Positions 40,276 through 59,939 of a stretch of 64,000 bases of DNA are shown here, piece after piece (positions within the stretch are counted from its first letter, which is position 1; every line of letters begins with the position of its first letter). The notes below the pieces were generated by a model that was given only the letters and a program-made list of their open reading frames with translations, had not been told where the DNA came from and made no database searches. This DNA comes from an uncultured Methanosarcinaceae archaeon (lineage in GTDB: Archaea; Halobacteriota; Methanosarcinia; Methanosarcinales; Methanosarcinaceae). The DNA lies in assembly GCA_963847185.1 (NCBI GenBank), contig CAWJYV010000008.1, forward strand, positions 288,001-352,000, written 5' to 3'. A program made the translations under genes and the position numbers.

Positions 40276-41092
40276 ATTTACCCCCTAAATGAATCACCAA
40301 TTAACGTATTTATACGTATCTTCTTCAACAATTGGTGCATTTTTAAGGAAAAATAATTCTTATTTTTATATTCAATCAAGAATAATCAATAGATTATTTC
40401 CAAAAGGCTGGAATTTTTCTAAATAAACTAGAAGCTGTATCAAAAGCTCCAAAAGTAGGAAAAGAAATAAGTTTTTCATTACAATGTTTGCCTTGTTTTT
40501 ACTTCTCATAAGCCCTTTTAGTAAGTTCAGGTTTCACGAGCGAGACTCCTGTACGAATGTAGAATATAAGTCCACTTATAGCAACAACTATACCAGAAAT
40601 AGTTCATATATATACTAATTTTTTATACAGCTTAAACATCTTCTCTTTTAATGCTCAAAAAAGCAGTTAGTAATCTTAGGATGTCAATTGACATTTTCCG
40701 TTTGATTCTGATTTGAGTAATTCCCTTTCATATAAACGTTTCCTCTCATGTTATTATACTTCTTATCTCTCAATGTGAATCGTTTCCAACAAAAAATTAA
40801 AAATAAAGTTCTCAGGAAACTGTTTCATAGAACAAAATACAATTAAACAATTCATGAGGTATCTTTGAAATATTCAAAACAGAAAATAAAGGATCTTCCA
40901 GATATTAGTTTAGAATCTTAATTTCCTATTTATATAAACCTTCCTAAACACAACTATTTGTGTAAAACTATTAAGATATTTGTTCAAACTCAATAATCTC
41001 AACAAATAAAACTATCGGGCATCATTGAAATTGGGATCTAATACGTTTGATAAAGCTGTGTATTGCACGGCAGTGGGGGGAGTGATTCATTC

Positions 41093-42082
41093 ATGACGGC
41101 GAATGTCATAGAAGTAAATAATCTTGAGCACAGTTATGGCGATTTAAAAGCTGTAGATAATATCAGTTTCACCGTAAAGGAAGGGGAAATATTTTCATTT
41201 CTAGGTCCGAATGGAGCGGGTAAGAGTACTGTAATAAATATTCTCACTACACTTCGGAAAATCCAGAAAGGTGAGGCTAAAGTTAATGGTTATGATGTGG
41301 CAAAGGAATCAAAGCATGTAAGAAAATCAATAGGTATTGTTTTTCAGATGATGTGCCTTGATTATGAAATGACTGTATGTGAAAATCTTGAGTATCATGG
41401 AAAGATATACTCAATGCCAAAAGAAGAAAGAAGAAAAAGAATAAACGAACTTCTTAAATTAACTGAACTGGAAAGTAAAAGGAATACTCTTGCTAAAGAC
41501 TTAAGTGGGGGCATGAAACGAAGGCTTGAACTTGCAAGAGGATTAATGACAAAACCTGCAGTTCTTTTTCTTGATGAGCCGACGATAGGTTTTGATATCC
41601 AGACCAGATTAAGAATGTGGGAATATTTGAGGGAGATTAAGAGAGAAGGCACAACCATATTCATGACCACTCATTATATGGAGGAAGCCGATCAGCTCAG
41701 TGACAGGATCAGTATTATTGATCATGGGAAAATCATTGTAACCGGGAGTGCATTGGAGTTAAAAAATCAGCTTGGAAAAGACCTTCTTTATCTGGAAACT
41801 AGTGATAATAAAGCTGCTGCAGAAGTTTTGAAGACTATCGAATCGGTAACTGGAGTAACTGATGACTCTAAATCCCTAAGGATAATGCTTGGGATAGATG
41901 TCACACATGTACTACCGAAAATTATAGACAGTATCAGGCAAAAAGGGATAGAGATCATAACAGTAAATATCAAAAAACCTTCTATGGATGATGTTTTCGT
42001 TCATTATACAGGGCATGATTTAAGAGAAGGCGGAACACAGGAAAAGCATGAAGGAGACGAAATTATGGAGGCATTGAAATGA
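41093..42082 (+). CDS. DrrA-like ABC exporter ATP-binding protein
   Basis: GPNGAGKST, LSGGMKRR, FLDEPT, TTHYMEEA, PSMDDVF. Confidence 0.93.
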   Translation: MTANVIEVNNLEHSYGDLKAVDNISFTVKEGEIFSFLGPNGAGKSTVINILTTLRKIQKGEAKVNGYDVAKESKHVRKSIGIVFQMMCLDYEMTVCENLEYHGKIYSMPKEERRKRINELLKLTELESKRNTLAKDLSGGMKRRLELARGLMTKPAVLFLDEPTIGFDIQTRLRMWEYLREIKREGTTIFMTTHYMEEADQLSDRISIIDHGKIIVTGSALELKNQLGKDLLYLETSDNKAAAEVLKTIESVTGVTDDSKSLRIMLGIDVTHVLPKIIDSIRQKGIEIITVNIKKPSMDDVFVHYTGHDLREGGTQEKHEGDEIMEALK

Positions 42083-42915
42083 GCTTTGCGTTCCAAGCGA
42101 TATACTGGAGAGAAATGGTAAAGTTTTTTAGATTCAAATCCGTGCTCCTCAGTTCATTGATTCAGCCTGTGATGTGGCTGGCATTTTTTGGGCTTGCAAT
42201 GTCAGATAGTTTTGATAAATTAACTTCCATGATACCAAGCATTCCCGGTGTTCCAAACGTGGATTATCTTTCCTATATGGGTGCTGGAATAATTGCAATG
42301 GACGTGCTCTTTGCCAGCCTTTTTGGGGGTACTAATCTCTTATTTGATAAGAAATATAGTCTATTAAAAGAGACTATTGCAAGTCCTATCTCACGAGTTA
42401 ATATCATCCTAGGGGTTGGGCTTTCCGCTGTGACGAAATCTTTCATCCAGACGGCTATCATTATCGGATTTGGAGGACTGATTGGTATGAATTTCTTTAA
42501 GGGATACACTCCTGTTCAAACCCTTATATCAGTCGTGGGTATATTTGTACTGGTTGGAATTTTTACATTGGGATTCCTCTTCCTTTCAGGATCAATTGCT
42601 ATTACGGTTGATCAACCCGAAGGAATGCAGTCCATACTTACCTTTATTAGTATGCCATTATTTTTTGTGAGCAATGCACTTTATCCTGTCGATGGATTTC
42701 CTGAATTTATCAGGATCCTGTCGGTGTTTAATCCATTATCTCTCCTGGCAAACGGAGTTCGCTATTTCGCGTTAGGAACTAACTTCTCTGTAATGGGTAC
42801 CCATTACATTTATACGACAGCGGATATTGCCTTTTCATTTGTAGGACTAATAGTCTTTGCTCTCACAATGTTATCCGCCGTACTCTGGAGATTAAATAAA
42901 GTGAATATTTCTTAA
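42079..42915 (+). CDS. ABC-2 type (DrrB-like) permease
   Basis: 6 TM pattern, SNALYP, NPLS; overlaps the ATPase stop. Confidence 0.9.
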   Translation: MSFAFQAIYWREMVKFFRFKSVLLSSLIQPVMWLAFFGLAMSDSFDKLTSMIPSIPGVPNVDYLSYMGAGIIAMDVLFASLFGGTNLLFDKKYSLLKETIASPISRVNIILGVGLSAVTKSFIQTAIIIGFGGLIGMNFFKGYTPVQTLISVVGIFVLVGIFTLGFLFLSGSIAITVDQPEGMQSILTFISMPLFFVSNALYPVDGFPEFIRILSVFNPLSLLANGVRYFALGTNFSVMGTHYIYTTADIAFSFVGLIVFALTMLSAVLWRLNKVNIS

Positions 42916-45229: not shown

Positions 45230-45322
45230 ATGTTTGCATATGATTTCTTTGTGAACTTTGCTTTGATTTCAGCATACAAAGCAACAGTCTGTGCACAGAT
45301 TACCCAAGTAATTGTCGGGTAA
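45230..45322 (+). CDS. Family C peptide 1, 30 aa MFAYDFFVNFALISAYKATVCAQITQVIVG
   Basis: SD GGGAGGG; one of 4 paralogs with synonymous divergence. Confidence 0.85.
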   Translation: MFAYDFFVNFALISAYKATVCAQITQVIVG

Positions 45323-45404
45323 ATTAGATGGATAATAAGGAATTCACTCTCGAAGGATTTCCATTGTATTGTAGTGAGAACTATATTGAAAGGGGGAAAA
45401 TCAA

Positions 45405-45497
45405 ATGTTTGCATACGATTTTTTTGTTAATGTGGCTCTGATTAAAGCATACAAAGCAAAAGTTTGTGCAGAGATTACCCAAGTAATTATCGGGTAA
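45405..45497 (+). CDS. Family C peptide 2, 30 aa MFAYDFFVNVALIKAYKAKVCAEITQVIIG
   Basis: SD AGGGGG; paralog. Confidence 0.85.
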   Translation: MFAYDFFVNVALIKAYKAKVCAEITQVIIG

Positions 45498-45577
45498 ATT
45501 GAGACAAATAATAAGGATTCATTCTAGAAGATTTTACCATATTAAAATAGAGAATATACTGAAAGGAGGAAAATTAA

Positions 45578-45679
45578 ATGTATTGGTTTTCACAGGACTT
45601 TTTTGTTAATCTGGCCCTAGTTGACGCATACAAAGCAAAAGTTTACGCAGGAATTACACAGGTAATCGTCGAATTATAA
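45578..45679 (+). CDS. Family C peptide 3, 33 aa MYWFSQDFFVNLALVDAYKAKVYAGITQVIVEL
   Basis: SD AGGAGG; in-frame length variant. Confidence 0.85.
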   Translation: MYWFSQDFFVNLALVDAYKAKVYAGITQVIVEL

Positions 45680-45714
45680 GATTCACGTAAATAAACTTAA
45701 AGGAGGAAAATCAA

Positions 45715-45807
45715 ATGTTTGCATATGATTTCTTTGTCAATATAGCCCTGGTTAAAGCATGCAAGGCACAAGTTTACGCAGGAATTACCCAGGTAATCAT
45801 CGGATAA
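45715..45807 (+). CDS. Family C peptide 4, 30 aa MFAYDFFVNIALVKACKAQVYAGITQVIIG
   Basis: SD AGGAGG; paralog. Confidence 0.85.
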   Translation: MFAYDFFVNIALVKACKAQVYAGITQVIIG

Positions 45808-45984
45808 ATTAAAAAATACAAAAAATTGAATTGAGAGTTGCCTGTTTTACATGCAACTTTTTGGGTCTATAAAACAGTTTCAGTGGTTGCCTCTTAAAGA
45901 TATAATGGACAATCTCCTGGATTCGTTTGTCTTTAATTGGCGACCAATTAATCTATAGAGTTATAAATAAATGGGGGAAAAGTA

Positions 45985-46077
45985 ATGATAGTTTTACCAT
46001 CAATAAATATAAACATGGCGTGGGTATTCGTAATTCTTTCCAAGAATATCGGCGTTTTCATAAATCAGAATATCTAA
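45985..46077 (+). CDS. Family D peptide 1, 30 aa MIVLPSININMAWVFVILSKNIGVFINQNI
   Basis: SD GGGGGA; duplicated at 46228. Confidence 0.8.
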   Translation: MIVLPSININMAWVFVILSKNIGVFINQNI

Positions 46078-46227
46078 TTTAAATTAAAAAGTTGCATGTT
46101 TTGCATGCAATTCTTAGGCCGTAGTAATCTAATAGATATTCTAGATATGGACAAATCTCTGGATTCATTTGTCTTTAACTGATGACCAATTAATCCATAC
46201 GTTTAGAAAGAAATGGAGGGAGAAATA

Positions 46228-46320
46228 ATGATAGTCTTACCATCAATAAATATAAACATGGCATGGGTATTCGTAATTCTTTCAAGGAATATCGGCGTTT
46301 TCATAAATCAAAGCATCTAA
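46228..46320 (+). CDS. Family D peptide 2, 30 aa MIVLPSININMAWVFVILSRNIGVFINQSI
   Basis: SD GGAGGGAG; differs from copy 1 by synonymous changes plus K>R and N>S. Confidence 0.8.
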   Translation: MIVLPSININMAWVFVILSRNIGVFINQSI

Positions 46321-46354: not shown

Positions 46355-48060
46355 TTTAGGTCGTAGTAATCTCAATAGCCATATCTTCTAGTATAATGGA
46401 CAAATTCCCTGGATTCATTTATCTAGAGTTGATGGCTATAGATTCTCTATTTACTTTCATGGCTTAGTTTTTTATCTTTCTCTGCGTTCACTAGACTTTT
46501 ATTCAATTAGATACAATTTTAAGGCTGTTATTTTGTCCTCTGGCGTGTTTCAAGATTGTATCAATATAATATTGTACTCGTTAAATATAATGTCTAATGA
46601 AATACAAATAAGAAACTGACATTAAAATGCAGTTAGTTAATTCGTTTTTTTCTTTGCCTATTTGCTGGTCGAAATTTCTCTATTTAATCCTACTATTTAT
46701 ATATACATATTTGCAAAATTAATCATGTCATAGCAGATAACCAAAACGTAAAGTAATGAAAAAATATAATTTTACACTTGAATAGTCTTCTACTTAAAGG
46801 TGAATATCTAAATTGAAATAAATTCAAAAATAGAAATTCAGTATGAGTCAGAAAAGTACTTCTCAAAGTATCCAAAGTTAGTATTAATAGCTTAATTTCA
46901 AATCTTTTAATTATTGTGTGTTTAATTTTTATATTCGAAATATCTATTAATCGAGTTATTTGGATACCTGAGTAGTTGTCAAAAGTTACTTGTGTATATT
47001 TAGGCGTTTTGGCATTTTAATCCAATTTTGGTGATATAATTAACTTCTCAACAATTTATTCTATTCTTATAAATGTCTGAAATTCCTCAGAGAGTTTCCT
47101 CCGATTTGTATGAATTTTATGCGTATAATCTGGATCATAATATTAATCTTTGTGTAACTGAAGTAAAGGAACATATAATCTTCTCCCCTTGTTTAATATA
47201 TCTCTTTTCATTTGTTTTAGTGCTTTCTTCTAATTGATAAATTGGATTTAAGATCCCCACATTATTTTTCTTTTTTTCACAATCGCTATTGCATCTCTAT
47301 TAGATCTTTTTAGTGATGTGTTAATCTTTTTAATCAACTCCTTATTAGATTACTACTCTTCGACATGTTTCTTGAAACTATGGTAAGTTCAAACTGCTAA
47401 ATTTATTTTGAATCAAATCATGGGCATCTTTTTCATTTGAGTCTGATAATTCTAATTGTCTAATCGAAGAGTTTCTATATACAGTTATATCATTAATTTA
47501 TATGTACTGTAGAGAACAATTACTCCTTACAATTTATAGTGTTTAAATATTTGAATACAGAATTCCTGCAGAGAAAAAAATTTTAAAATTTATTTTTTAA
47601 AAAATTAATAAATACATAGAATTTATATGTCTTTTTTGTTCTGCAATAATGTTAATTATGCGAAAATATTCGGGATGAAAAGTAAAGAATTAATGAAGAG
47701 AATCTTTATCTATAATCTAAAGTTAAATAAGAATATAAATTCGAAATATATAGGTGCAAGGGATAGCTCCCTCTATATTTTATGGAGTTATAAAAATTAC
47801 TTTAATTTATATTTCTCTAAGTAAAATTAATATTTTATAGGCTAACCAAGATATGTTCACTCTTTTCGAAGATATTTTAGTCTCGTCTTTTTATATAGTT
47901 CGCATCCCTGTCTAAATGTTGATAGTTTGTATATTCTTGAGGTTTATTTCATAGCCCAAAATCAGTGTGTTGAGAAGCAAACTTTTTAGTTTTTAAAATA
48001 AGTAATTCATTTAATATGTTTTTATTTATATATCTACATATTAATATATGTAGAAATTTA

Positions 48061-48085
48061 AAGTCGCCTGTTTTGCGGGCGACTT
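48061..48085. terminator. Stem-loop downstream of the minus-strand array
   Basis: AAGTCGCCTG-TTTTG-CGGGCGACTT; covarying homolog of 46330-46354. Confidence 0.5.
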
Positions 48086-48182
48086 CTTAATTTCTATTGT
48101 TGCGCATTGTCTATGATTATGAGTTATGCCACAAGCTTATGACTTATTTTATTCTCTCATAAATCTCTCTCATCTTGAGGCT

Positions 48183-48260
48183 TTAATCGCACTGAATGTA
48201 TCTGAACCATGTCTTATCAAAGGTCTTACTTACACAAAGATATTCAAACAGGATGGACAT
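48183..48260 (-). CDS. Family A peptide, 25 aa MSILFEYLCVSKTFDKTWFRYIQCD
   Basis: SD GGAGG; one of 10 paralogs. Confidence 0.85.
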   Translation of the reverse strand: MSILFEYLCVSKTFDKTWFRYIQCD

Positions 48261-48341
48261 TGAAACTTCCTCCATTATCTTTTTATCTGTTAGTCAGTTT
48301 TATTCATTAAGTTTCAATTAAATTTTAACCAGCTAATTTGG

Positions 48342-48419
48342 TTAAAATTCGAAGCAGAACTCTATACCAAGGCCTGCAACAGCTTTAAATAAGTTGGAAA
48401 GGTTAAATACAAATATCAT
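48342..48419 (-). CDS. Family B peptide, 25 aa MIFVFNLSNLFKAVAGLGIEFCFEF
   Basis: SD GGAGTGGGG; one of 4 paralogs. Confidence 0.82.
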   Translation of the reverse strand: MIFVFNLSNLFKAVAGLGIEFCFEF

Positions 48420-48464
48420 TTTATCCCCACTCCTTTTGGTTTTCTGGCGCTGAATTTGTGTATC

Positions 48465-48539
48465 TTAACACTGAATGTATCTGAACCACTCAAGGTTGTA
48501 AGTCTTACTAACACAGAGATATTCAAACAGGATGGACAT
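48465..48539 (-). CDS. Family A peptide, 24 aa MSILFEYLCVSKTYNLEWFRYIQC
   Basis: SD GAGGGAG; paralog. Confidence 0.85.
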   Translation of the reverse strand: MSILFEYLCVSKTYNLEWFRYIQC

Positions 48540-48596
48540 TGGAACTCCCTCTACTCTTTATTTTACTTGCGAATTTAACAACTCAGTTTTTATATC

Positions 48597-48671
48597 TTAA
48601 CACTGAATGTATCTGAACCACTCGAGGTTGTAGGTCTTGCTAATGCACAGGTATTCAAACAGTATGGACAT
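48597..48671 (-). CDS. Family A peptide, 24 aa MSILFEYLCISKTYNLEWFRYIQC
   Basis: SD GGGGGAG; paralog. Confidence 0.85.
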   Translation of the reverse strand: MSILFEYLCISKTYNLEWFRYIQC

Positions 48672-48755
48672 TTAAATCTCCCCCATTCTTTTTATGTGTA
48701 TTTTAGTCAGTTTTTATTAATTAAGTTTCAATTAAATTTTAACCAGCTAATTTGG

Positions 48756-48833
48756 TTAAAATTCGAAGCAGAACTCTATACCAAGGCCTGCAACAGCTTT
48801 AAATAAGTTGGAAAGGTTAAATACAAATATCAT
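48756..48833 (-). CDS. Family B peptide, 25 aa MIFVFNLSNLFKAVAGLGIEFCFEF
   Basis: SD GGGAGTGGAG; paralog. Confidence 0.82.
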   Translation of the reverse strand: MIFVFNLSNLFKAVAGLGIEFCFEF

Positions 48834-48877
48834 TTTATCTCCACTCCCTTTTGGTTTTCTGTCATTTAATTTGTGTT

Positions 48878-48952
48878 TTAACACTGAATGTATCTGAACC
48901 ATGTCATGTTAAAGGTCTTACTAACACAGAGATATTCGAACAGTATGGACAT
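48878..48952 (-). CDS. Family A peptide, 24 aa MSILFEYLCVSKTFNMTWFRYIQC
   Basis: SD AAAGGGA; paralog. Confidence 0.85.
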   Translation of the reverse strand: MSILFEYLCVSKTFNMTWFRYIQC

Positions 48953-49010
48953 TTCGATTCCCTTTACTCTTTATGTCGCTTGTGAACTCAACTGATTTAA
49001 TCTCGATCTC

Positions 49011-49085
49011 TTAACACTGAATGTATCTGAACCACTCGAGGTTGTAGGTCTTGCTAATGCACAGGTATTCAAACAGTATGGACAT
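49011..49085 (-). CDS. Family A peptide, 24 aa MSILFEYLCISKTYNLEWFRYIQC
   Basis: SD AGGAGAG; paralog. Confidence 0.85.
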   Translation of the reverse strand: MSILFEYLCISKTYNLEWFRYIQC

Positions 49086-49169
49086 TTAAATCTCTCCTAC
49101 TCTTTTTATGTTTATTTCAGTAAGTTTTTATTCATTAAGTCTCAATTAAATTTTAACCAACTAATTTGG

Positions 49170-49247
49170 TTAAAATTCGAAGCAGAACTCTATACCAAGG
49201 CCTGCAACAGCTTTAAAGAAGTTGTTAAGGTTAAATACAAATATCAT
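49170..49247 (-). CDS. Family B peptide, 25 aa MIFVFNLNNFFKAVAGLGIEFCFEF
   Basis: SD GGGGAGTGGAG; paralog. Confidence 0.82.
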   Translation of the reverse strand: MIFVFNLNNFFKAVAGLGIEFCFEF

Positions 49248-49293
49248 TTTATCTCCACTCCCCTTTGGTTTTTTGTCATTTAATTTGAGTATC

Positions 49294-49368
49294 TTAACAC
49301 TGAATGTATCTGAACCATGTCATGTCAAAGGTCTTGCTAACACAGAGATATTCAAATAGTATGGACAT
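49294..49368 (-). CDS. Family A peptide, 24 aa MSILFEYLCVSKTFDMTWFRYIQC
   Basis: SD GAGGAGGGA; paralog. Confidence 0.85.
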   Translation of the reverse strand: MSILFEYLCVSKTFDMTWFRYIQC

Positions 49369-49412
49369 TTCAATTCCCTCCTCTCTTTATGTCGCTTACG
49401 AGTTCAACTAAG

Positions 49413-49537
49413 AGCCTATCCGAAAAATGTTGTGAGCTACTGTAACTTTTGAAAGTGACAATATACACAACTTCACTAGCACTCGATAATATGACTCGTA
49501 ACTTCTCGAGATGCATTAATGACTTTTCGGATAGGCT
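49413..49537. mobile_element. 125-bp MITE inserted in an array spacer
   Basis: Perfect 14-bp TIRs AGCCTATCCGAAAA / TTTTCGGATAGGCT; absent from the equivalent spacer 48953-49010. Confidence 0.8.
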
Positions 49538-49555
49538 TCATTCATTTCCCGCAGT

Positions 49556-49633
49556 TTAGCAGCACTGAATGTATCTGAACCATGTCATGTTAAAGGTCTT
49601 GCTAACACAGAGATATTCGAACAGTATGGACAT
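49556..49633 (-). CDS. Family A peptide, 25 aa MSILFEYLCVSKTFNMTWFRYIQCC
   Basis: SD GGAGGGA; one extra in-frame Cys codon. Confidence 0.85.
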   Translation of the reverse strand: MSILFEYLCVSKTFNMTWFRYIQCC

Positions 49634-49691
49634 TTCAATTCCCTCCACTCTTTATTTTACTTGCTAATTCAACTAACTCAATTTTTAGATC

Positions 49692-49766
49692 TTAGCACTG
49701 AATGTATCTGAACCATGTCATGTTAAAGGTCTTGCTAACACAGAGATATTCGAACAGTATGGACAT
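49692..49766 (-). CDS. Family A peptide, 24 aa MSILFEYLCVSKTFNMTWFRYIQC
   Basis: SD GGAGGGA; paralog. Confidence 0.85.
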   Translation of the reverse strand: MSILFEYLCVSKTFNMTWFRYIQC

Positions 49767-49824
49767 TTCAATTCCCTCCACTCTTTATTTTACTTGCTAA
49801 TTCAACTAACTCAATTTTTAGATC

Positions 49825-49899
49825 TTAGCACTGAATGTATCTGAACCATGTCATGTTAAAGGTCTTGCTAACACAGAGATATTCGAACAGTATGGACAT
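49825..49899 (-). CDS. Family A peptide, 24 aa MSILFEYLCVSKTFNMTWFRYIQC
   Basis: SD GGAGGGA; paralog. Confidence 0.85.
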   Translation of the reverse strand: MSILFEYLCVSKTFNMTWFRYIQC

Positions 49900-49957
49900 T
49901 TCAATTCCCTCCACTCTTTATTTTACTTGCTAATTCAACTAACTCAATTTTTAGATC

Positions 49958-50035
49958 TTAGCAGCACTGAATGTATCTGAACCATGTCATGTTAAAGGTC
50001 TTGCTAACACAGAGATATTCGAACAGTATGGACAT
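49958..50035 (-). CDS. Family A peptide, 25 aa MSILFEYLCVSKTFNMTWFRYIQCC
   Basis: SD GGAGGGA; paralog. Confidence 0.85.
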   Translation of the reverse strand: MSILFEYLCVSKTFNMTWFRYIQCC

Positions 50036-50118: not shown

Positions 50119-50190
50119 TTATTTGAAGTAGATTTGTACACCAAGGCCTGCAAATGCATTAAAGAAGTTTTTAATATTAACGAATAGCAT
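50119..50190 (-). CDS. Divergent family B peptide, 23 aa MLFVNIKNFFNAFAGLGVQIYFK (first gene of the array)
   Basis: SD GGGGAGGGAG; keeps NFFxAxAGLG with conservative substitutions. Confidence 0.8.
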   Translation of the reverse strand: MLFVNIKNFFNAFAGLGVQIYFK

Positions 50191-50405
50191 TTTCTCCCTC
50201 CCCATTTTGCATTTTTCCATGCTTATACATTCTCTTTTTCTATCCTTTTTGTATATTTTCAATAGAAAATACACTTATCAGGAATATTTGTACGAGGCTT
50301 TTTCTTAATCCCCTCGGTCGTTAATACCACTCTGGCAAATATCTTTTTATTATTAGGCGTTAATCTTTCGTTTTGGCCTCAAAAAGCCTAACTTTTGCTC
50401 GCCAG

Positions 50406-50450
50406 TGAGTGTATCTAACTATCTATACTAAATTATATAAGCCCTATAGA
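50406..50450 (-). promoter_or_regulatory. Putative promoter of the minus-strand peptide array
   Basis: Minus strand reads TCTATAGGGCTTATATAATTTA...ACTCA. Confidence 0.45.
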
Positions 50451-51982
50451 ACTAATAATTCTTATAAATAATAGTCTTTGAACTTTTTAGAATATTTATC
50501 TAAGATAAATAATATATATTTATATAAAATTTTCATTTATTTCTACTATTCATAATTTGAATACGTCGTTGACTTCCATTATACAAGGATAAAGATAAAT
50601 TATCCTATTAATTAATCAATATTAAAGTTTAATATTAAATATCATACTTAGATTCTATTTTTTCTTTTATTATCTTTTTTTGTCCATATCAAATACTTTT
50701 TACAGGATATTTACTTATCTCGAGTTACTTCTTTGTCCAACAGATTTCTAAATTTTTTGCCAATATTTTGCGAATTTTGGTTTTTTCTTTACTATTTTCT
50801 TTCCAATTAAATATCTTAGAGTGATAATTTTAGATAGTGAATATATCGCTAAAATATCAGTTTACTTTCTATGGGTAGGTTATGAATAAATCCCTGTTTT
50901 GTTCTACCAAACTATTTTGATAAAATATATTGCCTTATGTCATGAAAAGTGTCTCTTATTTTTGATTCTCGGTACTCAGTAGTATTTTTATCCAAGTTAC
51001 TTTTCTTCTCTTTAATCTCTTTATCTTTTATTTTTGCTGTTGAAAAACCATATGTTTTTTGTCAGGAATACTTTCATAGGTGCCCTTTCTTCAGATGGAT
51101 TTTAAAAAAGAATCTTGCAGGGAGTTCAGTAACTCAAAAACTTTGACTTAAAAACAGTAAAAAAGGGAACTCTTCTCCTCTTTCTAAACACTTGGGTAAA
51201 AGCATAATACTTATTTTACAGATCGAAAGTAGTTGCCATTACAGATCTCTAATTTATTTTCTTTTTTCTTACAAAAAGGAATTTATTTGGTGGGGAATTT
51301 CTCCAAAAAGGCAGTGTAGCGAAAGTTCTGTAAAATCACAAATCTCAAGAAGTTCCTTGGACGAAAATACCGTTTCAGAAGAATCTAATTTCATATTGTG
51401 AGAAAAAATTGACTTCATATTTACAGCAAATTTGCGACACTGCTTTTGATATTTCAGGTCATATAATAGTGTGTTCTTAAATTTATTCATCCTATAAAAT
51501 ATAAGTCAATATATATCATTTTCCTAACACGAATGTGTCTACATTACTAACCAGCAAAAAAGAAAAAAATATAATCAGTAATCGAAAATTAATGAAAATT
51601 AATTCATAGACGTTTATTCATTAGATATTAAGAAAGATAACAGTTTAAGTTGGTTCTCTCATTTGATGAATTGTTACTAATATAATTCTTAAAAATTAAG
51701 CTTTATTTCGTTCTATTAATCTTTTTTAGCGTTATCATGATCCTTTTTTTTATATAATGTAATTTTTATGTGTTTTTTGATTAAATGAGCTTCAATTATG
51801 CATTTATCGAGTAAATAAACATCTAAATTCTTTAGTTTATACTCATATTTCGGATAACTCTTTAAAAAAATTTAGAGAGAATAGGTTAAAATGGATTTTC
51901 TTACAATAAGAAGAAGTAAAGAGAATTGAGATTATCCTTATAATTTTTTTCTCATTATATCTCAGTTACTTTGGGGGGGAAT

Positions 51983-52690
51983 ATGGATATAATCAACGAC
52001 AGTTTACCTGAGGGTGGATTTCCTATTGTCGAACTTTCCAACGTCAGGAAGAGTTATTTACTTGGAAATCTGGAAGTTCCGGTTCTCTCGGATATTAACC
52101 TTAAAATAGGTGTGGGAGAGTTTCTCGCTATTATGGGTCCATCGGGCTCAGGGAAAAGTACACTTATGAACCTTATAGGTTGCCTTGACCGACCTACTGA
52201 AGGTCAGGTGCTTATAAGAGGAAGCGATCTCCAGAGAATGTCAGACAAAGAACTTGCCCGCTTAAGGGGGCTTGAAATAGGTTTTGTTTTTCAGAATTTT
52301 AATCTGGTTCCGCGCCTGACGGCTCTTGAGAACGTCTTGCTCCCTACTTTTGCAAATTCGAGAATTAGTACTGATCCAGTAAAGCGTGCAAAAGAGCTCC
52401 TTGAAACTATGGGGCTGCAGGATCGTATGCACCATAGGCCAGGGGAACTTTCAGGAGGCCAGGCTCAAAGAGTCTCAATAGCAAGGGCGCTTATTAATGA
52501 CCCTGCTATTCTTCTTGCGGATGAACCGACCGGAAATCTTGACTCCAGGACCGGAGCTGAGATTCTTAGAATACTTATGAATCTGAATACCGAAGGAAGA
52601 ACGATAATAATAGTTACACACGACTCTGAAATTGCTAAGTATGCTGATCGAGTCGTTCTGGTGAAGGATGGAATAATCCAGTTTAATTAA
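51983..52690 (+). CDS. LolD/MacB-type ABC ATP-binding protein (module 1)
   Basis: GPSGSGKST, IGFVFQNFNL, LSGGQ, LADEPTGNLD. Confidence 0.93.
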   Translation: MDIINDSLPEGGFPIVELSNVRKSYLLGNLEVPVLSDINLKIGVGEFLAIMGPSGSGKSTLMNLIGCLDRPTEGQVLIRGSDLQRMSDKELARLRGLEIGFVFQNFNLVPRLTALENVLLPTFANSRISTDPVKRAKELLETMGLQDRMHHRPGELSGGQAQRVSIARALINDPAILLADEPTGNLDSRTGAEILRILMNLNTEGRTIIIVTHDSEIAKYADRVVLVKDGIIQFN

Positions 52691-52702
52691 AGGTGGGATC
52701 AT

Positions 52703-53950
52703 ATGGAAATAGTTAAAAAGAATGTTGTTGCTTTTTTTTCTTTACTTTTGGTTTTCTCTTCACTTGCAATTCCTGCTTCTGCAGATGTTGGAAGTGCAAG
52801 CCTTAAAATTACAATAATCGAAACAAATCCCTATCCTGCAAAGATAGGGGAATACTTAAACCTTACATTACAGGTGGAAAATGTTGGGCAGGATAAAGCT
52901 GGTAATGTTGACATAGAAGTTATTCCTAAGTATCCTTTCTCTCTTGATCCTGGGATGAATCCCATTCAAAACGTTGGGGCACTCAACCCAGGCAGGACTG
53001 CAACGAAAGAATTCTATCTTTTTGTGGACAAAAACGCTCAGAAAGGAATCCGCTCCCTTGACATCCGGGCAAGAGCCGATAAAGGCAGTCCATGGAGCGA
53101 GAAAAGCTTTGATATAAGGGTCGGTACTCAAACATATAATAGTAAAGGTACAGTTGAACTTGAGAATGTTGTTTCGAACCCAGATATTTTCATGCCTGGA
53201 GATCGGGGCACTGTTACAGTAACTCTCAAGAATACCGCAACCACTCCGACTGTCACCATTGATGAGAGTAGTTATGATACCAATGCCAGAATTCAGTCAG
53301 CCGTTTTAGAGCCATTATCTGATGAGATAATCGTACTTGATTCTCCATATGAAGAAATGGGTATTATAGGGCCTGGAGATAGTATCAAATTAACTTTCAA
53401 CGTTAGGGTTGCAGAGAATGCCATGGATGGGAATCACAACCTTGAATTAGCAATAGAGGGCAATTCTTTCGATTACAATAGCAAAAAGAATATTCCTCTT
53501 AAGGTCGACTCTTCAAATATAAAGGTGATCCCTTCAAAAGCACTTCAGCTTGTCAATGGACAATCTACAATCGAATTTGATGTGGCAAATACCCATCCTA
53601 ACGAGCTTAACTCAGTAAGCATAAAACCTGAAGCTGAGGGTGTGAAATTTTATCCTGCAGAATATTTCATAGGGCCAATGGATCCGGATGAGCTTTTTAC
53701 TGTCGAATTTGATGCTGTAAAAGATAATTCTTCGGGTTTCACGGAAGATTCAGGTAAAATAAACATGAGCCTTACTGCAAATTATAACAATGGAATTAAC
53801 AGGCACGCAAATGTCATCGGGAATCTTAATCTTGCAGACGATTCCGAATCCTCCGAATCAAATTCAACATCCGTAATAGCAGGTGGACTTGTTATTATTT
53901 CTGTTCCTGCGGCCTTTCTGTATTACAGAAGAAAAAAAGCAGCGAGATAA
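52703..53950 (+). CDS. COG1361-like extracellular protein with signal peptide and C-terminal membrane anchor (module 1)
   Basis: Signal peptide ending ASA, Ig-like VENVG / VTLKN segments, C-terminal TM followed by RRKK. Confidence 0.8.
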   Translation: MEIVKKNVVAFFSLLLVFSSLAIPASADVGSASLKITIIETNPYPAKIGEYLNLTLQVENVGQDKAGNVDIEVIPKYPFSLDPGMNPIQNVGALNPGRTATKEFYLFVDKNAQKGIRSLDIRARADKGSPWSEKSFDIRVGTQTYNSKGTVELENVVSNPDIFMPGDRGTVTVTLKNTATTPTVTIDESSYDTNARIQSAVLEPLSDEIIVLDSPYEEMGIIGPGDSIKLTFNVRVAENAMDGNHNLELAIEGNSFDYNSKKNIPLKVDSSNIKVIPSKALQLVNGQSTIEFDVANTHPNELNSVSIKPEAEGVKFYPAEYFIGPMDPDELFTVEFDAVKDNSSGFTEDSGKINMSLTANYNNGINRHANVIGNLNLADDSESSESNSTSVIAGGLVIISVPAAFLYYRRKKAAR

Positions 53951-53981
53951 ATTAACTGATATCATATTTGTGGGGTAAAAT

Positions 53982-55193
53982 ATGATCAGATTTGCGCAGG
54001 CAACTCGAATTGCTTTGGGGAGTATAGGAAGTGCTAAGCTTAGGTCATCACTTACTACACTTGGAATAGTGATTGGCATAGCTGCAGTAGTTGTTAATGC
54101 ATCTCTTGGTGCCAGTTTCAATCAGTTTTTTACTAATGAAATTTCTTCTGTTGGCTCAAACTTTATTATCACGTACAGCAATCAACCCAATATTTTCTTC
54201 GACAACGAGTACAATTTAATGAAAAGTACCCAGGGGATTACCGGTGTGTCTCCCAGAAAATCGATGACTGGAGAGCTAACCTATCTTTCGGAAACTAATA
54301 CCGTAAACATTGCAGGGGTTAATGAGGATTTTCAGGAAATTCAGGGCTTAAAGATGGAAAGAGGCAGTTTCCTGACAAATAAGGATATTAACTCTGCAGT
54401 TTTAGGGTACAACCTGGCAAATGATGAGTTTAGCAGGGATATATCTCACAGAAGCACCGTGGAAATTGCTTTTCGACAAGAAAACGGTACCGTTGTAACG
54501 AAGACATTTAAGGTAAAAGGGATTCTGCAAAATTCCAAGCCAACTGTTATTAGTGAAGATAGCGATTATGATTTGACCGTCTTTATCCCAATTTCTACTA
54601 TGAATGAAATGATAGGAGAAGAGGATTATGGAACTTTTCTTGCAATGACGGATAGTCCTGATAAAGTCCGTAATGTCGCAGAAAAAGTGGATGATAGATT
54701 AGCACGGAATTTTGGGATCTCAGAAAGGGTTGATGATGAAGATTCAAAACCTTATACTGTTTTTAATCAGGCAGATGTGCTTGAGGAAACTGGGAAATTG
54801 GGCGATTCATTAAGCTCTTTCCTTCTGGTCCTTGCCTCAATTTCACTTTTTGTTGGCTCCATAGGGATTATGAACATTATGCTTGTAACAGTTACGGAAC
54901 GTACAAGAGAAATTGGTATAATGAAATCTGTGGGATACAGCAACTCTAATATCCTCTCTCTTTTCCTGCTGGAGTCTATAATGGTCAGTTTCCTTGGAGG
55001 AGTTGTAGGTACAACTATTGGGGGTTTAGGGGCCTATATCCTTGAAAGTGCTCTTAAACTTCCTCCAGTATTTCCTTTTAAATTGATTGAAATAGGGGTG
55101 ATAGTTTCGATTCTTGTGGGGGTAACTGCTGGTTTGTATCCTGCAAAAAAGGCAGCTCATATGAATCCTGTAGATGCTTTAAGGTACGAGTGA
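53982..55193 (+). CDS. MacB/FtsX-type ABC permease (module 1)
   Basis: RSSLTTLGIVIG, GIMNIMLVTVTERTREIG, PVDALRYE. Confidence 0.93.
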   Translation: MIRFAQATRIALGSIGSAKLRSSLTTLGIVIGIAAVVVNASLGASFNQFFTNEISSVGSNFIITYSNQPNIFFDNEYNLMKSTQGITGVSPRKSMTGELTYLSETNTVNIAGVNEDFQEIQGLKMERGSFLTNKDINSAVLGYNLANDEFSRDISHRSTVEIAFRQENGTVVTKTFKVKGILQNSKPTVISEDSDYDLTVFIPISTMNEMIGEEDYGTFLAMTDSPDKVRNVAEKVDDRLARNFGISERVDDEDSKPYTVFNQADVLEETGKLGDSLSSFLLVLASISLFVGSIGIMNIMLVTVTERTREIGIMKSVGYSNSNILSLFLLESIMVSFLGGVVGTTIGGLGAYILESALKLPPVFPFKLIEIGVIVSILVGVTAGLYPAKKAAHMNPVDALRYE

Positions 55194-55378: not shown

Positions 55379-55684
55379 GATAGTTTGACAGAAAGTTAAT
55401 ATTTACATTTTTCAGCATGTTGAAAAATATCACTGACGATCTGATTGACAATTTGGCCACTTTTACTATTCCTCTGACTTTAGCCGAAAAGGGTTTTTAT
55501 GGAGCTTGTTAAAGAGACTGAAGTTAGAAGAAATCAAAACCTTGGAAGTATGGTGATCAGAACGCAACAAAGGAGGATTCAAAGACGGGAACTAAAAAAC
55601 ATAAGAATCAGACGTTCCATAATGTACGGATAATTCAGATACAGATAACTTAGTTCTAATATGAAAAACAATAGAGGGGTAGAC

Positions 55685-56572
55685 ATGGAAATTAAAATGG
55701 CCACTGACAAAGCATCTGCTCCCGGCAATTCTGCTCCCAAAACAGAAACCGATTCGATACCTGAGGGGAAAATGGCTCATAATGAAAGCCAATTTGTCTC
55801 AAACGAAGATTCAAGTGATGAGCCCTTTAAATATGAATTATACCGCACAAAAAATCTGCATAGAAGGATGGAGGGAAGGGATAAAACAAGAGCTTCGGTT
55901 ATTGAAGTTATCAATGTCAAAAAAAGTTATTTCCTTGGAGATACGGAAGTTCCGATTCTTCGAGATATTAACTTAGAAGTGTTTGAAGGGGAATTTCTTG
56001 CTATCATGGGTCCTTCTGGCTCTGGAAAGAGTACATTAATGAATCTCATTGGTTTTCTTGACAGGCCTACAGAAGGTAAAATTATGATTAAAGGCCTCGA
56101 TGTCAATAAGCTGTCTGATAAGGAAGTTGCTAGACTCAGGGGATTGGAAATAGGTTTCGTGTTCCAGATTTTCAACCTAATCCCACGGCTTACCGCTCTT
56201 GAAAATGTTGAGTTGCCTACTTATGCAAATGTGAGAAATGGGGTTGATGTTCGCAAAAGGGCAAAGGAGCTTCTAGAACAGGTTGGCCTGGATGACCGTA
56301 TGCATCATAAGCCAGGTGAGCTTTCAGGTGGACAATCTCAAAGGGTTGCAATCGCCCGAGCTCTAATTAATGATCCTGCAATTCTTCTTGCGGACGAACC
56401 CACAGGAAATCTTGACTCAAAAACAGGATGTGAAATCCTGAACATGTTCACAAAACTCAACGAAGATGGCAGAACCATTGTAATGATTACCCACGATCCA
56501 GAAATTGCAAAATATGCAGACAGAATAGTGCTCGTAAAAGATGGAATCATTCAGAATAATCCCAATAGTTAA
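55685..56572 (+). CDS. LolD/MacB-type ABC ATP-binding protein with polar N-terminal extension (module 2)
   Basis: Same motifs as 51983; SD GAGGGG before 55685 (alternative start 55661). Confidence 0.92.
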   Translation: MEIKMATDKASAPGNSAPKTETDSIPEGKMAHNESQFVSNEDSSDEPFKYELYRTKNLHRRMEGRDKTRASVIEVINVKKSYFLGDTEVPILRDINLEVFEGEFLAIMGPSGSGKSTLMNLIGFLDRPTEGKIMIKGLDVNKLSDKEVARLRGLEIGFVFQIFNLIPRLTALENVELPTYANVRNGVDVRKRAKELLEQVGLDDRMHHKPGELSGGQSQRVAIARALINDPAILLADEPTGNLDSKTGCEILNMFTKLNEDGRTIVMITHDPEIAKYADRIVLVKDGIIQNNPNS

Positions 56573-56608
56573 GTTTCAAAATTTTAAGCTAATCAGGGTG
56601 AACCCAGA

Positions 56609-57865
56609 ATGACAAAAATGAAAAACCGAATTATTCCTTTTGTGCTGTCTTTGCTTTTAGTTTCCTCCATTTTTGCAGTTCCTACTTCTGCAGCTGTTGG
56701 AAGTTCAAGCCTTAAAGTCACAATAGTCGAAACAAATCCCTATCCTGCAAAGATCGGAGAATACCTGAACCTTACGCTTCAGGTAGAAAATATTGGAGGG
56801 GACAGGGCTGACAATGTTGACATAGAAATCGTTCCTAAATATCCTTTCTCTCTTGACTCAGGGATAGACCCTGTCCAGAACATCGGAGCTCTCAATCCAG
56901 GCAGGACTGCAACAAAAGAATTCTACCTTTTCGTGGACAAAAACACTCAGAAAGGAATCCGCTCCCTTGATATCCGAACAAGAGCTGATAAAAGCAGTCC
57001 ATGGAGCGAAAAAAGCTTTGATATAAGGATTGGTACTGAAACGTTTGACAGCAAAGGTACAGCTGAACTTCAAGAAGTTGTTTCCAATCCCGATGTTTTC
57101 ATGCCCGGAGACCGGGGGACTGTTACAGTAACTCTCAAGAATACCGCAGCTAATCCGACTGTCACCATTGATGGGAGCGACTATGATACCAATGCCAGAA
57201 TTCAATCAGCTGTTTTAAAGCCTCTATCTGATGGGATAACTGTTCTAGATTCCCCTTATGAAGAGATGGGTCTACTGGGGCCTGGAGATAGTATCAAATT
57301 AACTTTCAACGTTAGAGTTGCAGATGATTCCATGGATGGAACTCACAATCTTGAACTTTTAATAGAGGGAAACTCTTTCGATTACAATAGCAAAAAGAAT
57401 ATTCCTCTCAAGGTCGATTCTTCAAATGTAAAGGTGATACCCTCAAAGACACTTCAACTTGTCAATGGGAAATCTACAATCGAATTTGATGTGGCAAATA
57501 CCCATCCTAACGAGCTTAGCTCAGTAAGCATAAAACCTGAAGCAGATGGAGTGAAATTTTATCCTGCAGAATATTTCATAGGGCCAATGGATCCGGATGA
57601 GCTTTTTACAATTGAATTTGATGCTGTGGCAGATAACTCCTCAGATGCAGATTTGGATTCCTCTAAGCCTATAAACCTGACGCTTTCTGCAAGTTACAGT
57701 AATGGAATCAATAAACATGAAAATACTGTAAGCAATATGTATATTCAAGATATTGAGGAAAATCAGGGAGGAAGTTCTGGTATAATTATTGCAGGCCTGC
57801 TAACTGCTGTCTTTGTTGCTGCAGGTATATTGATTTACAAAAAGAGAATTAAAAACAAAAAATAA
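56609..57865 (+). CDS. COG1361-like extracellular protein (module 2)
   Basis: Close paralog of 52703-53950 with long identical stretches. Confidence 0.8.
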   Translation: MTKMKNRIIPFVLSLLLVSSIFAVPTSAAVGSSSLKVTIVETNPYPAKIGEYLNLTLQVENIGGDRADNVDIEIVPKYPFSLDSGIDPVQNIGALNPGRTATKEFYLFVDKNTQKGIRSLDIRTRADKSSPWSEKSFDIRIGTETFDSKGTAELQEVVSNPDVFMPGDRGTVTVTLKNTAANPTVTIDGSDYDTNARIQSAVLKPLSDGITVLDSPYEEMGLLGPGDSIKLTFNVRVADDSMDGTHNLELLIEGNSFDYNSKKNIPLKVDSSNVKVIPSKTLQLVNGKSTIEFDVANTHPNELSSVSIKPEADGVKFYPAEYFIGPMDPDELFTIEFDAVADNSSDADLDSSKPINLTLSASYSNGINKHENTVSNMYIQDIEENQGGSSGIIIAGLLTAVFVAAGILIYKKRIKNKK

Positions 57866-58149
57866 ATAACTCAAAATATATTACTCAATGATTAAATTTG
57901 TTAAGAGCTTAGTGGATATGTATTTCGGGAATGTTTCTCCTGAAGTATCCCGATAATTTCAGATTGTGCCTTCCACTACGCTCATTTTTTACAGGGTTAT
58001 ACAGGTCATCACTATTGTGCTTTTAACATAGATTTCTCAATGAAAGGGCTGTCCTCCCCAGATTTAACTATTACTTTATATAGTTGATTTCTAATGAATG
58101 ACGCTTTAGTTTTTTACTCTTTATTTTCTTTCTGAGGAGGTCTTTCTTT

Positions 58150-59478
58150 TTAATTAATCGGAATATTAAAGGTAAACGTGCTGCCTTTTCCTATCTCGGA
58201 GTCCACCCAGATTTTTCCCCGGTGAAGATCCACAAAGTTTTTAGCAATATACAGTCCAAGTCCCGTGCCTCCGTATCCTCTTGCTGTGGAAGAATCTGCC
58301 TGGGTAAAAGGCATAAATATCTTTTCGTAATCTTTGTTTGATAGTCCTATCCCGTTATCCGACACTTTTATCTCAAGCCTTTCTTCCTTTTTAGAGGCAG
58401 TAACAGTAACCTTCCCTTTTTCAGGGGTAAATTTTATAGCATTGCTCATTAGATTATGCAGAATCTGCCTCAGTTTTGTTCTGTCAGCCCTGACATTTCC
58501 AAGAGAAGGATCAACTTTTAATTCTACAGTAATTTTCTTATTTGAAGCCGAAGAGAAAAGGCTCATTCTTACCTCTCCGATAAGGCTAGCAATATCTATC
58601 TCTTCATAATTTAGATTTTTTTCTCCAGTTTCGAGCCTTGAAATGTCGAGCAGATTGTCAATTATTTCCATAAGATTTTTCCCGCTAATGAGGATATTAT
58701 TGACATATTTTGATTGCCTGGTATTCAGAGGTCCGAAAGCTCCTTCTAGCAGTAAATCCGAAAAACCTATCACTGAATTGAGGGGAGTTCTGAGTTCATG
58801 GCTCATGTTCATTATGAAGTTATTTTTGGCTCTGTTTGCAGTTTCTGCGTCCTTTTTAGCTTTAAATAGGATATTTTCCAGTTCTTTCTGTCCTTCCAGC
58901 TGTCCAAATTGTTTCCAGCCTCCTTTTCCTTTGACAAAAACACTGTTTTCCTCCGTTAGATCAGACAACATTCTACCTGAGAGTTCTTCAAGAGGGAGGG
59001 TGCAGAGAAATGTGAGATTTTTATTGTTCTCAAAAGAAGTCGTTTCAATAACTTTTCTGCATGTTTCAAGATAGATATTAAGAGAAAGTCCTGATTTTCT
59101 GAGGTCAAAATTTGTTCTTAGTCCTGTAAATCCTCCAGAAAGGGTTTTTTCATATCCTTTACTTATAAGTTCTTTTACTGCTGAAGTAAGGAGGATAGTA
59201 TTCTCCGGGAGAGGTTCAGCTGACAGAATTTCCAACTGAGAAGAAACAGAACTGTGCCCTATGTCAAGTCCTATCTGTTTAAGCTCATCTTTCACTTTTT
59301 CAGTGATTAGCTCCTCAGGAGAAACCCATAAGCAATATTCCCCTTTTTCAATTCCTTGCTTAAAATAAATACTAAGTAATTCTGTCAACTCTTCTACATC
59401 ATTATATGCGGCAGAGATCTGGAAACTTTGCGACATTCTTGAAAAAAGCTCGGGGTCTTTGTCATTATTTTTTTTCAT
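58150..59478 (-). CDS. Sensor histidine kinase with MEDS-like N-terminal domain
   Basis: YFKQGIEKGEYCLWV; H-box MSHELRTPL, NAIKF, DNGIG, GTGLGL. Confidence 0.9.
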   Translation of the reverse strand: MKKNNDKDPELFSRMSQSFQISAAYNDVEELTELLSIYFKQGIEKGEYCLWVSPEELITEKVKDELKQIGLDIGHSSVSSQLEILSAEPLPENTILLTSAVKELISKGYEKTLSGGFTGLRTNFDLRKSGLSLNIYLETCRKVIETTSFENNKNLTFLCTLPLEELSGRMLSDLTEENSVFVKGKGGWKQFGQLEGQKELENILFKAKKDAETANRAKNNFIMNMSHELRTPLNSVIGFSDLLLEGAFGPLNTRQSKYVNNILISGKNLMEIIDNLLDISRLETGEKNLNYEEIDIASLIGEVRMSLFSSASNKKITVELKVDPSLGNVRADRTKLRQILHNLMSNAIKFTPEKGKVTVTASKKEERLEIKVSDNGIGLSNKDYEKIFMPFTQADSSTARGYGGTGLGLYIAKNFVDLHRGKIWVDSEIGKGSTFTFNIPIN

Positions 59479-59939
59479 ATTTCCCCCTCCATGTGTTTGC
59501 AATAATGCGTTTTCAATAGCTCACAACCGGGTTTCATACATAGGCTTGCACTTTTTCTATGATATATCACTAGCATATATAAGAAATATACCAATTTATA
59601 CTGTTTGTACAGTTCTTCAGGATTTTAACAAATTAGTCATACAAACTATCAAATGGTGAGTATCTAATAAAATTCTATTATTAGATCTGCTTAATCATTA
59701 TTTTTCTCTAAAGGTTTAGAAATCCATTAAAAGTGGCTATAATATCAGGCTATCACAAAAGTTCTATGATTATTTTTTACCGTTATTTATTATATCTTTG
59801 AGATTAATATTTATTGGGGTTTTTGGGAACTTTCTGTGTCTATCTTAGTTTTACGCAGTTTACGCGCTAAAGCCTGAAGTCCAATTTACACAGGAGCTCA
59901 AGCAGTTTTAGAGCATTCATATGTATAACAGATGATTTT

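Follow-up and report, generated by a model that had tools for sequence, protein, structure and literature searches.

A 64,000-nucleotide stretch of the genome of an uncultured Methanosarcinaceae archaeon (GenBank assembly GCA_963847185.1, contig CAWJYV010000008.1, positions 288,001 to 352,000; hereafter the window, located at G000:C8:288001-352000, where G000 denotes the genome that holds it) contains ten open reading frames (ORFs) of 24 or 25 codons each, all on the minus strand within 48183-50035. Judged by their sequences, these ORFs, which we call family A, are real peptide genes that look translated and are kept by purifying selection. They are interleaved with genes of a second, very Phe-rich peptide family of 23-25 residues (family B), and the two co-inherited families form an autonomous cassette that runs from a conserved putative promoter and leader through a B gene and several A genes to further B+A blocks and a terminator hairpin. 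Comparison of the sequences further indicates that the A copies represent conserved isoforms, A1 (FNMT), A2 (YNLE) and A3 (FDMT/FDKT), and no specificity library. The ten family A genes of the window are as follows.

49958..50035, minus strand: family A copy 1, FNMT type, ending in CC
49825..49899, minus strand: family A copy 2, FNMT type
49692..49766, minus strand: family A copy 3, FNMT type
49556..49633, minus strand: family A copy 4, FNMT type, ending in CC
49294..49368, minus strand: family A copy 5, FDMT type
49011..49085, minus strand: family A copy 6, YNLE type, with Ile at position 10
48878..48952, minus strand: family A copy 7, FNMT type
48597..48671, minus strand: family A copy 8, YNLE type, with Ile at position 10
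48465..48539, minus strand: family A copy 9, YNLE type, with Val at position 10
48183..48260, minus strand: family A copy 10, FDKT type, ending in CD, the final gene of the cassette

An initial annotation had described these ORFs as a constant two-cysteine frame around a variable four-residue core, and its inventory was reproduced throughout: the coordinates agree, the cores are FNMT in five copies, YNLE in three, and FDMT and FDKT in one copy each, position 10 is either Val or Ile, and the C-terminal extension is absent in seven copies, Cys in two and Asp in one. All synonymous codon pairs that it had listed recurred in our codon table, which added GTT/GTA, ACC/ACT and CTC/CTT; the codons of Arg20 are AGA, AGG and CGG. 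Constraint at the protein level is visible as synonymous variation, and distinct variants coexist. For comparison we used 59 genomes of the genus and 177 genomes at family rank. Besides G000, three genus genomes (G077, G024 and G075) carry family A, with 13 copies in G000 and 16, 9-10 and 10 in the others, so that 48 copies were collected in total. In G000, which also holds 5 copies of family B, family A is the largest paralogue family of small ORFs preceded by a Shine-Dalgarno (SD) site.

Several measures support the coding status of these ORFs. Among the non-identical unit pairs of the array (44 pairs), identity is 0.90 in the coding sequence versus 0.65 in the spacer, and between species the corresponding values are 0.85 and 0.60, while the diverged array units retain frame, length, ATG and stop. 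A strict SD site, defined as GGAGG, GGGAG or GGGGA at positions -16 to -4, precedes eight of the ten window copies, compared with 603 of the 37,728 ATG-initiated ORFs of 15-45 codons in the genome (1.6%); the remaining two copies have weaker G-runs upstream, and SD-like G-runs stand at a fixed distance upstream of all 48 copies from the four genomes, in which ATG, stop and length are also kept. Across 36 unique DNA sequences from the four genomes, the ratio of non-synonymous to synonymous differences (pN/pS) of the peptide frame is 0.385, the lowest of all six frames, the other five ranging from 0.55 to 1.28. When copies of the same type are compared between G000 and G077, pN/pS falls to 0.053 for FDMT, 0.077 for FNMT and 0.073 for YNLE. 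The runner-up (0.553) is an opposite-strand frame that shares the wobble positions and is open in seven of the ten window copies; an antisense ORF in this frame was ruled out, as three window copies and many copies of other species contain internal stops and no ATG is conserved in the other species.

These data also bear on the suggestion that there is no peptide function at all and that the ORFs are by-products of a tandem DNA or RNA repeat. Such an origin would account for the 133-nt units of copies 1-4, which are near-identical (those of copies 2 and 3 fully so) and are therefore weak evidence of coding on their own, as well as for a stretch of 20 nt at the ORF's 3' end that does not vary among the ten window copies. 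However, in G077 both this stretch and the core diverge synonymously only, the within-type pN/pS values of 0.05-0.08 and the upkeep of ATG, stop, length and SD in 48 copies speak against a repeat, and Rfam yielded no RNA family at E ≤ 1. We therefore consider a repeat by-product highly improbable.

The initial annotation had regarded the four-residue core as diversified and the copies as specificity variants, and it is here that our analysis departs from it. The FNMT, YNLE and FDMT types each occur in both G000 and G077 and hence predate the split of the two species, and each type is under purifying selection. YNLE-type genes of G000 and G077 differ by a mean of 10.75 synonymous and 3.75 non-synonymous changes, and all four core codons have changed between the two species, every time synonymously. 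The flanks are closer within species than between them regardless of the core type (0.04-0.08 versus 0.11-0.12 differences per site); residue 22, for instance, is Ile in all array copies of G000 and Val in all main-array copies of G077. The flank pattern fits two histories, concerted evolution or an expansion that took place independently from three ancestral isoforms. The metagenome loci described below add FNLT core variants, and the divergent species G075 has a single core of the FEMV type. In an alignment of 34 unique peptides, Met1, Glu6, Tyr7, Leu8, Phe19 and Gln23 are invariant and Lys12 is nearly so; total length is 24-26 residues, both ends being conserved and the variable residues lying inside (positions 14-18). 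Two lone single-copy A variants with a two-residue insertion were found, one on contig C10 of G000 and the other at one G077 locus. A second, more divergent module of one B and five A genes lies directly upstream of the main array in G077 (L069 10351-11111); in four of its five A copies the first-half Cys is at position 11, and every one of the five carries a third Cys or ends in Trp.

The cysteine frame held up in part. Counting a copy as positive if its first half contains a Cys and another Cys is found among its last four residues, we found the pair in 37 of the 38 copies of G000, G024 and G077 and in none of the ten copies of G075, five of which contain no Cys whatsoever. Cysteine conservation among homologs, on which the initial annotation had staked its model, is thus seen in three of the four species and fails in the fourth. 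Even in the three species the positions slide, one Cys being at 9 or 11 and the other at 24 or 25, with extra Cys residues at 18 or 22, and neither Cys is invariant across the family. The N-x-T sequon is likewise present in the FNMT copies as had been pointed out, although N-x-S/T occurs in only 15 of all 48 copies and never in G075. Neither a signal peptide nor a leader was found in the 48 copies from the four genomes.

The model built on these features was a beta-hairpin closed through Cys, whose diversified four-residue turn provides a library of specificities and is possibly N-glycosylated. In its favour are the two cysteines on either side of the variable residues, seen in the window and, for three species, in most copies, as well as the coexistence of distinct variants. 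Against this, the variants resolve into three conserved isoforms, the Cys pair and the sequon have the restricted distributions given above, and there is no secretion signal. The producer is, moreover, a reducing, strict anaerobe, in which a disulfide would be unlikely. We give this model a minimal chance. If there is a hairpin at all, the alignment suggests that its turn would be better placed at the nearly invariant residues 11-13 (small/polar-Lys-Thr), with the variable residues 14-18 lying in a strand.

The same cysteines raise the question of whether the A peptides are precursors or substrates of the RiPP type (RiPPs being peptides that are ribosomally synthesized and then modified post-translationally), with the conserved Cys, above all the one located at the C-terminus or adjacent to it, modified by unlinked enzymes, for example to a thioether or by oxidative decarboxylation or S-prenylation. 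Some RiPP classes typically have several copies of the precursor gene, and the retention of the Cys pair in nearly all copies of three species despite the sliding positions would agree with such a role. A SPASM radical S-adenosylmethionine enzyme from methanogens is reported to install thioethers. However, the peptides are too short for a leader plus a core, and it is their interior that varies, with both ends conserved; the Cys pair is lost throughout G075; and Pfam scans of the flanks of 11 loci revealed no enzyme, transporter or immunity gene in common and no maturation enzyme beside any of these loci, which leaves only an unlinked enzyme for the task. On balance, a RiPP-type origin appears quite unlikely.

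Family B is the constant companion of family A. The B profile and the A profile match the same four of the 59 genus genomes, and 19 of the 21 B matches fall in A loci, the other two being on contigs of G024. In nine of ten multi-copy loci a B gene comes first and is followed by two to six A genes, the exception being a G024 locus on contig C108 that starts with an A gene; long arrays consist of repeated B+A blocks. The 23-residue form of the leading gene (B') is also found in G077 and G024. In addition to the A genes, the following elements were located in and around the cassette of the window.

50308..50519, minus strand: conserved non-coding block upstream of the cassette, with a TATA-like box, a short palindrome upstream of this box, and the conserved start of a ~220-nt leader
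50433..50440, minus strand: TATA-like box TTATATAA, made up of invariant columns in a five-locus alignment
50119..50190, minus strand: leading family B gene, 23-residue B' form, first gene of the cassette, with the SD site GGGGAGGGAG upstream
49170..49247, minus strand: family B gene, 25 residues
48756..48833, minus strand: family B gene, 25 residues
48342..48419, minus strand: family B gene, 25 residues
49405..49545, strand not assigned: insertion of 141 nt that resembles a miniature inverted-repeat transposable element (MITE), with terminal inverted repeats of ~15 nt, splitting the array between A copies 4 and 5
48060..48086, minus strand: terminator-like hairpin ~100 nt past the final gene, identified by folding energy

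The sequence upstream of the cassette (~210 nt) is more conserved than the peptide genes themselves, with ~80% identity overall in the five-locus alignment and a higher value in the block. A nhmmer profile of the block found it before A/B cassettes in G000, G077, G024 (three loci), G075 (two loci, partial) and metagenome loci; it has one match only in the whole G000 genome and precedes cassettes at differing genomic sites. The TATA-like box probably serves as the promoter, which would place the transcription start ~25 nt downstream of 50433-50440. A consensus fold of the leader from eight sequences (-7.5 kcal/mol, compensatory changes in 3 of 22 pairs) provides weak support for structure, possibly a long-range stem. 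A small ORF that ends just upstream of the TATA box was also considered; its frame is conserved at the amino-acid level, but it was not accepted, since four of five loci have no ATG. At the other end, the 81-nt terminator-like stretch folds with -22.2 kcal/mol (z = -5.8), and none of 200 shuffled sequences folds equally well. The MITE-like element has six weaker relatives (73-89% identity) on contigs C1, C2 and C4 of G000.

Both families are rare. Family A occurs in 4 of the 59 genus genomes, and in 1 of the 15 genus genomes that are assembled in 1-2 contigs; the former count is a lower bound, because many of the non-carrier assemblies are fragmented and tandem repeats may be missing from them. 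G009, the closest relative by its ABC-2 transporter gene (98% identity), is a non-carrier, with an assembly that is only 81% complete. A profile search of the 177 family-rank genomes gave three marginal matches outside the four carriers, two of which contain stop codons, the third covering 14 residues. With one strict N-terminal peptide pattern, five loci in two records were confirmed among 185,579 species genomes, and a scan of Joint Genome Institute (JGI) metagenomes provided five loci. Searching 1.84 billion predicted proteins with a profile gave three matches, two of which are over-extended calls of a family A peptide. The third, P0003, is a 70-residue predicted protein with four tandem 11-residue repeats that resemble family A positions 5-13 (E = 2e-4), which we take for chance or a translated DNA repeat. 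Four A/B peptides of the window and two from G075 matched no Pfam or NCBIfam family at E ≤ 10, and neither PADLOC and PHROGs nor the PDB sequences yielded any match at the same threshold. No family A or B match was obtained in plasmid, phage and viral (IMG/VR) collections, which argues against a mobile-element origin. We found no description of either family in the literature, supplementary tables, which may list small ORFs, lying outside the search.

Families A and B both average 26% aromatic residues, compared with 8.6% in long ORFs and 11.5% in random ORFs of 20-30 codons; ~4-5% of random small ORFs reach the level of A and B. B is strongly hydrophobic (mean Eisenberg hydrophobicity 0.31-0.66), and its last ten residues, hydrophobic and polar in alternation, have a strand-like hydrophobic periodicity of 170-180 degrees, which ~1.6% of shuffles reach, a value uncorrected for the many angles and segments tried. 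No alpha-helical amphipathicity was found in either family, as the moments at 100 degrees, 0.212 for A and 0.169 for B, compare with 0.178 and 0.160 for shuffled sequences (33% of shuffles reach the A value); A has only a weak maximum at 130-140 degrees. The A and B peptides of the window are near neutral (net charge -1 to +2); across species, A carries 0 to +1 in three of them and +2 to +4 only in G075. The GxxxG motif is absent from both alignments.

Thus, we tentatively favour, with somewhat less than an even chance of being right, a leaderless two-component peptide system that is produced at high dosage and acts at the membrane or by self-assembly. Family A (24-26 residues) would work jointly with family B (23-25 residues), the tandem copies would serve dosage, and the strong SD site in front of every gene would lead to large amounts of peptide. 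As aromatic-rich, hydrophobic and near-unmodified peptides, A and B would then reside in or on the membrane or co-assemble into beta-rich material, action in a near-unmodified state being suggested by the lack of a leader, of a signal peptide and of a linked maturation enzyme. The near-identical units 1-4 and the variation of copy number between species are consistent with the dosage part of this proposal. Expression level, localization, contact between A and B and activity of the peptides are all properties that we infer.

Several observations weigh against such a system. The absence of helical amphipathicity in A does not support a helix-based mode like that of phenol-soluble modulins or leaderless bacteriocins. 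A within-type pN/pS as low as that given above fits a conserved partner or an assembly better than an arms-race weapon, and the flanks of the 11 loci contain neither a linked immunity gene nor a dedicated exporter; strong selection and missing immunity genes together speak against a classical bacteriocin. Phenol-soluble modulins are exported by a dedicated ABC transporter, and an ABC-2 permease does lie beside the island in G000 and G075; it is not specific to the carriers, however, as 58 of the 59 genus genomes have the gene, and in G077 it lies ~186 kb from the array. Nor were peptide arrays found next to the orthologous ABC-2 genes of four non-carrier relatives. In G000 and G077 the MacB/CARDB operons next to the array are the same, and in G075 the array lies between ABC-2 and MacB; since this reflects one inherited syntenic position and not independent linkage, the MacB-type neighbours are shared by descent only. 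Finally, the conserved Cys of three species could be a modification or metal site, which the proposed system ignores.

If the strong selection points to a partner, A and B may instead be small intracellular proteins that bind to a large complex of the cell, for instance a membrane enzyme, and modulate it. The strong purifying selection that acts on each isoform would fit a conserved protein partner, and export signals are absent from both families. In Methanosarcina mazei, small proteins have been reported to bind the Mtr complex, and PMC11456600 describes a hydrophobic small protein that is associated with the membrane. Regulators known to act in this way are single-copy, however, unlike the 13 A and 5 B copies with strong SD sites found here, and a patchy occurrence in 4 of 59 genomes is unexpected for a modulator of a core complex. 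We hold this explanation to be unlikely, if clearly conceivable; were it correct, A and B would represent an unusually high-dosage regulator.

The hydrophobicity of B also brings to mind type I toxins or selfish cassettes, in which harmful hydrophobic peptides, above all B, would be checked by antisense RNA, with a repeat-like spread of the arrays. In favour of this, B combines a short length with high hydrophobicity, the cassettes stand at several unrelated sites per genome, and enterobacteria are known to have type I loci in tandem repeats. In contrast, the strong SD sites and the operon-like layout point to high and not to repressed translation, strong purifying selection acts on the isoforms, and the plasmid, phage and viral collections hold no match, so that we view a toxin of this type as very unlikely. 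Within the self-assembly branch of the favoured two-component system, a more specific version is that the two peptides assemble jointly, on the cell or outside it, into an aromatic-ladder, cross-beta (amyloid-like) material in which the three A isoforms take distinct positions. This is a long shot; if true, the material could be a matrix or even a conductive fibre for Methanosarcina aggregates and interspecies electron transfer, and no extracellular assembly of such kind built from peptides would have preceded it in methanogens.

In architecture, the tandem leaderless peptide operons of Gram-positive bacteria are comparable to the A/B cassette. In the phenol-soluble modulin alpha operon of staphylococci, which was long left unannotated, several genes in tandem encode leaderless peptides of ~20-26 residues; every gene has a ribosome-binding site (RBS) of its own, and no exporter is linked. 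The A/B cassette shares with it the tandem leaderless short genes, the individual RBS, the stand-alone operon and the dosage. Unlike the modulins, A and B lack a Pfam match (E ≤ 10) and an amphipathic alpha-helix signal, are archaeal and rich in Cys and aromatic residues, and belong to two unrelated families that are interleaved. Leaderless multi-peptide and class IIb bacteriocins, whose two or more small peptides are required jointly, are cationic helical peptides encoded with immunity and ABC-export genes (ABC, ATP-binding cassette), class IIb peptides having a GxxxG motif. With these, A and B have in common that they are co-encoded (same 4 of 59 genomes, same loci), in tandem and, as in the leaderless class, without a leader; they differ in that no immunity and export genes are consistently linked, the charge of the window peptides is near neutral and GxxxG is absent, and the purifying selection on them is unusually strong for a weapon. 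A further parallel is provided by the small proteins of M. mazei identified by ribosome profiling (Ribo-seq) and peptidomics, some of which are hydrophobic and membrane-associated and many genus-restricted (PMC11456600); like A and B, these are unannotated small ORFs, of what we infer to be the same genus. One of them, sORF_05, is reported to have a second genomic copy through duplication of an operon region, and the part of PMC11456600 at hand describes no tandem two-family array.

Peptide genes below ~30 codons are invisible to gene callers, and A and B are absent from annotation and databases. Family A nonetheless reaches 13 copies in one genome, has a fixed partner and its own regulatory region, and is under housekeeping-like purifying selection in a methane-producing group, which points to an unexplored kind of archaeal small peptide. 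If secreted or assembling, A and B would offer a first way into the study of how methanogens interact or form a matrix by means of peptides.

The window also encodes glutamine synthetase, TspO, a MEDS-domain histidine kinase and many ABC transporters. The array sits in a gene-poor, AT-rich island of ~9 kb, whose G+C content of 27-34% compares with ~40% in the surroundings; the island is bordered by the ABC-2 transporter at 41063-42915 on one side and by two MacB/CARDB-type ABC operons from 51971 on the other. The latter two sets (51971-55193 and 55661-61154) are paralogous and side by side, each with an ATPase, a CARDB-domain protein and an FtsX permease, and cross-match at ~75% DNA identity, in G077 too. 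In the second set, the gene of the MEDS-domain histidine kinase (58150-59502, minus strand) separates the CARDB gene from the FtsX gene.

A second peptide module was noticed in the same island on the plus strand at ~45230-46320, where a tandem of four 30-codon genes (family C) precedes two further 30-codon genes (family D). Strong SD sites stand in front of all genes of this module, and a GC-rich hairpin closes each block; another C/D locus is found at G000:C1:32029-32571. Family C occurs in 2 of the 59 genus genomes (G000 and G009), a phyletic pattern that differs from that of A/B, and the C/D peptides gave no Pfam, NCBIfam, PADLOC or PHROGs match. The C/D module resembles the A/B cassette in its tandem leaderless genes, strong SD sites, two families per module, hairpin and restriction to a lineage, whereas the sequences are unrelated and the A/B upstream block is absent from it, nhmmer having found only the one match in G000. 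Lineage-specific cassettes of two small peptide families may thus recur in this clade. Separately, G000 contains a dispersed family of SD-preceded ORFs of 26-33 codons in ten near-identical copies on seven contigs (e.g., C10:46702-46803 and C8:411953-412054), which is probably part of a repeated or mobile element.

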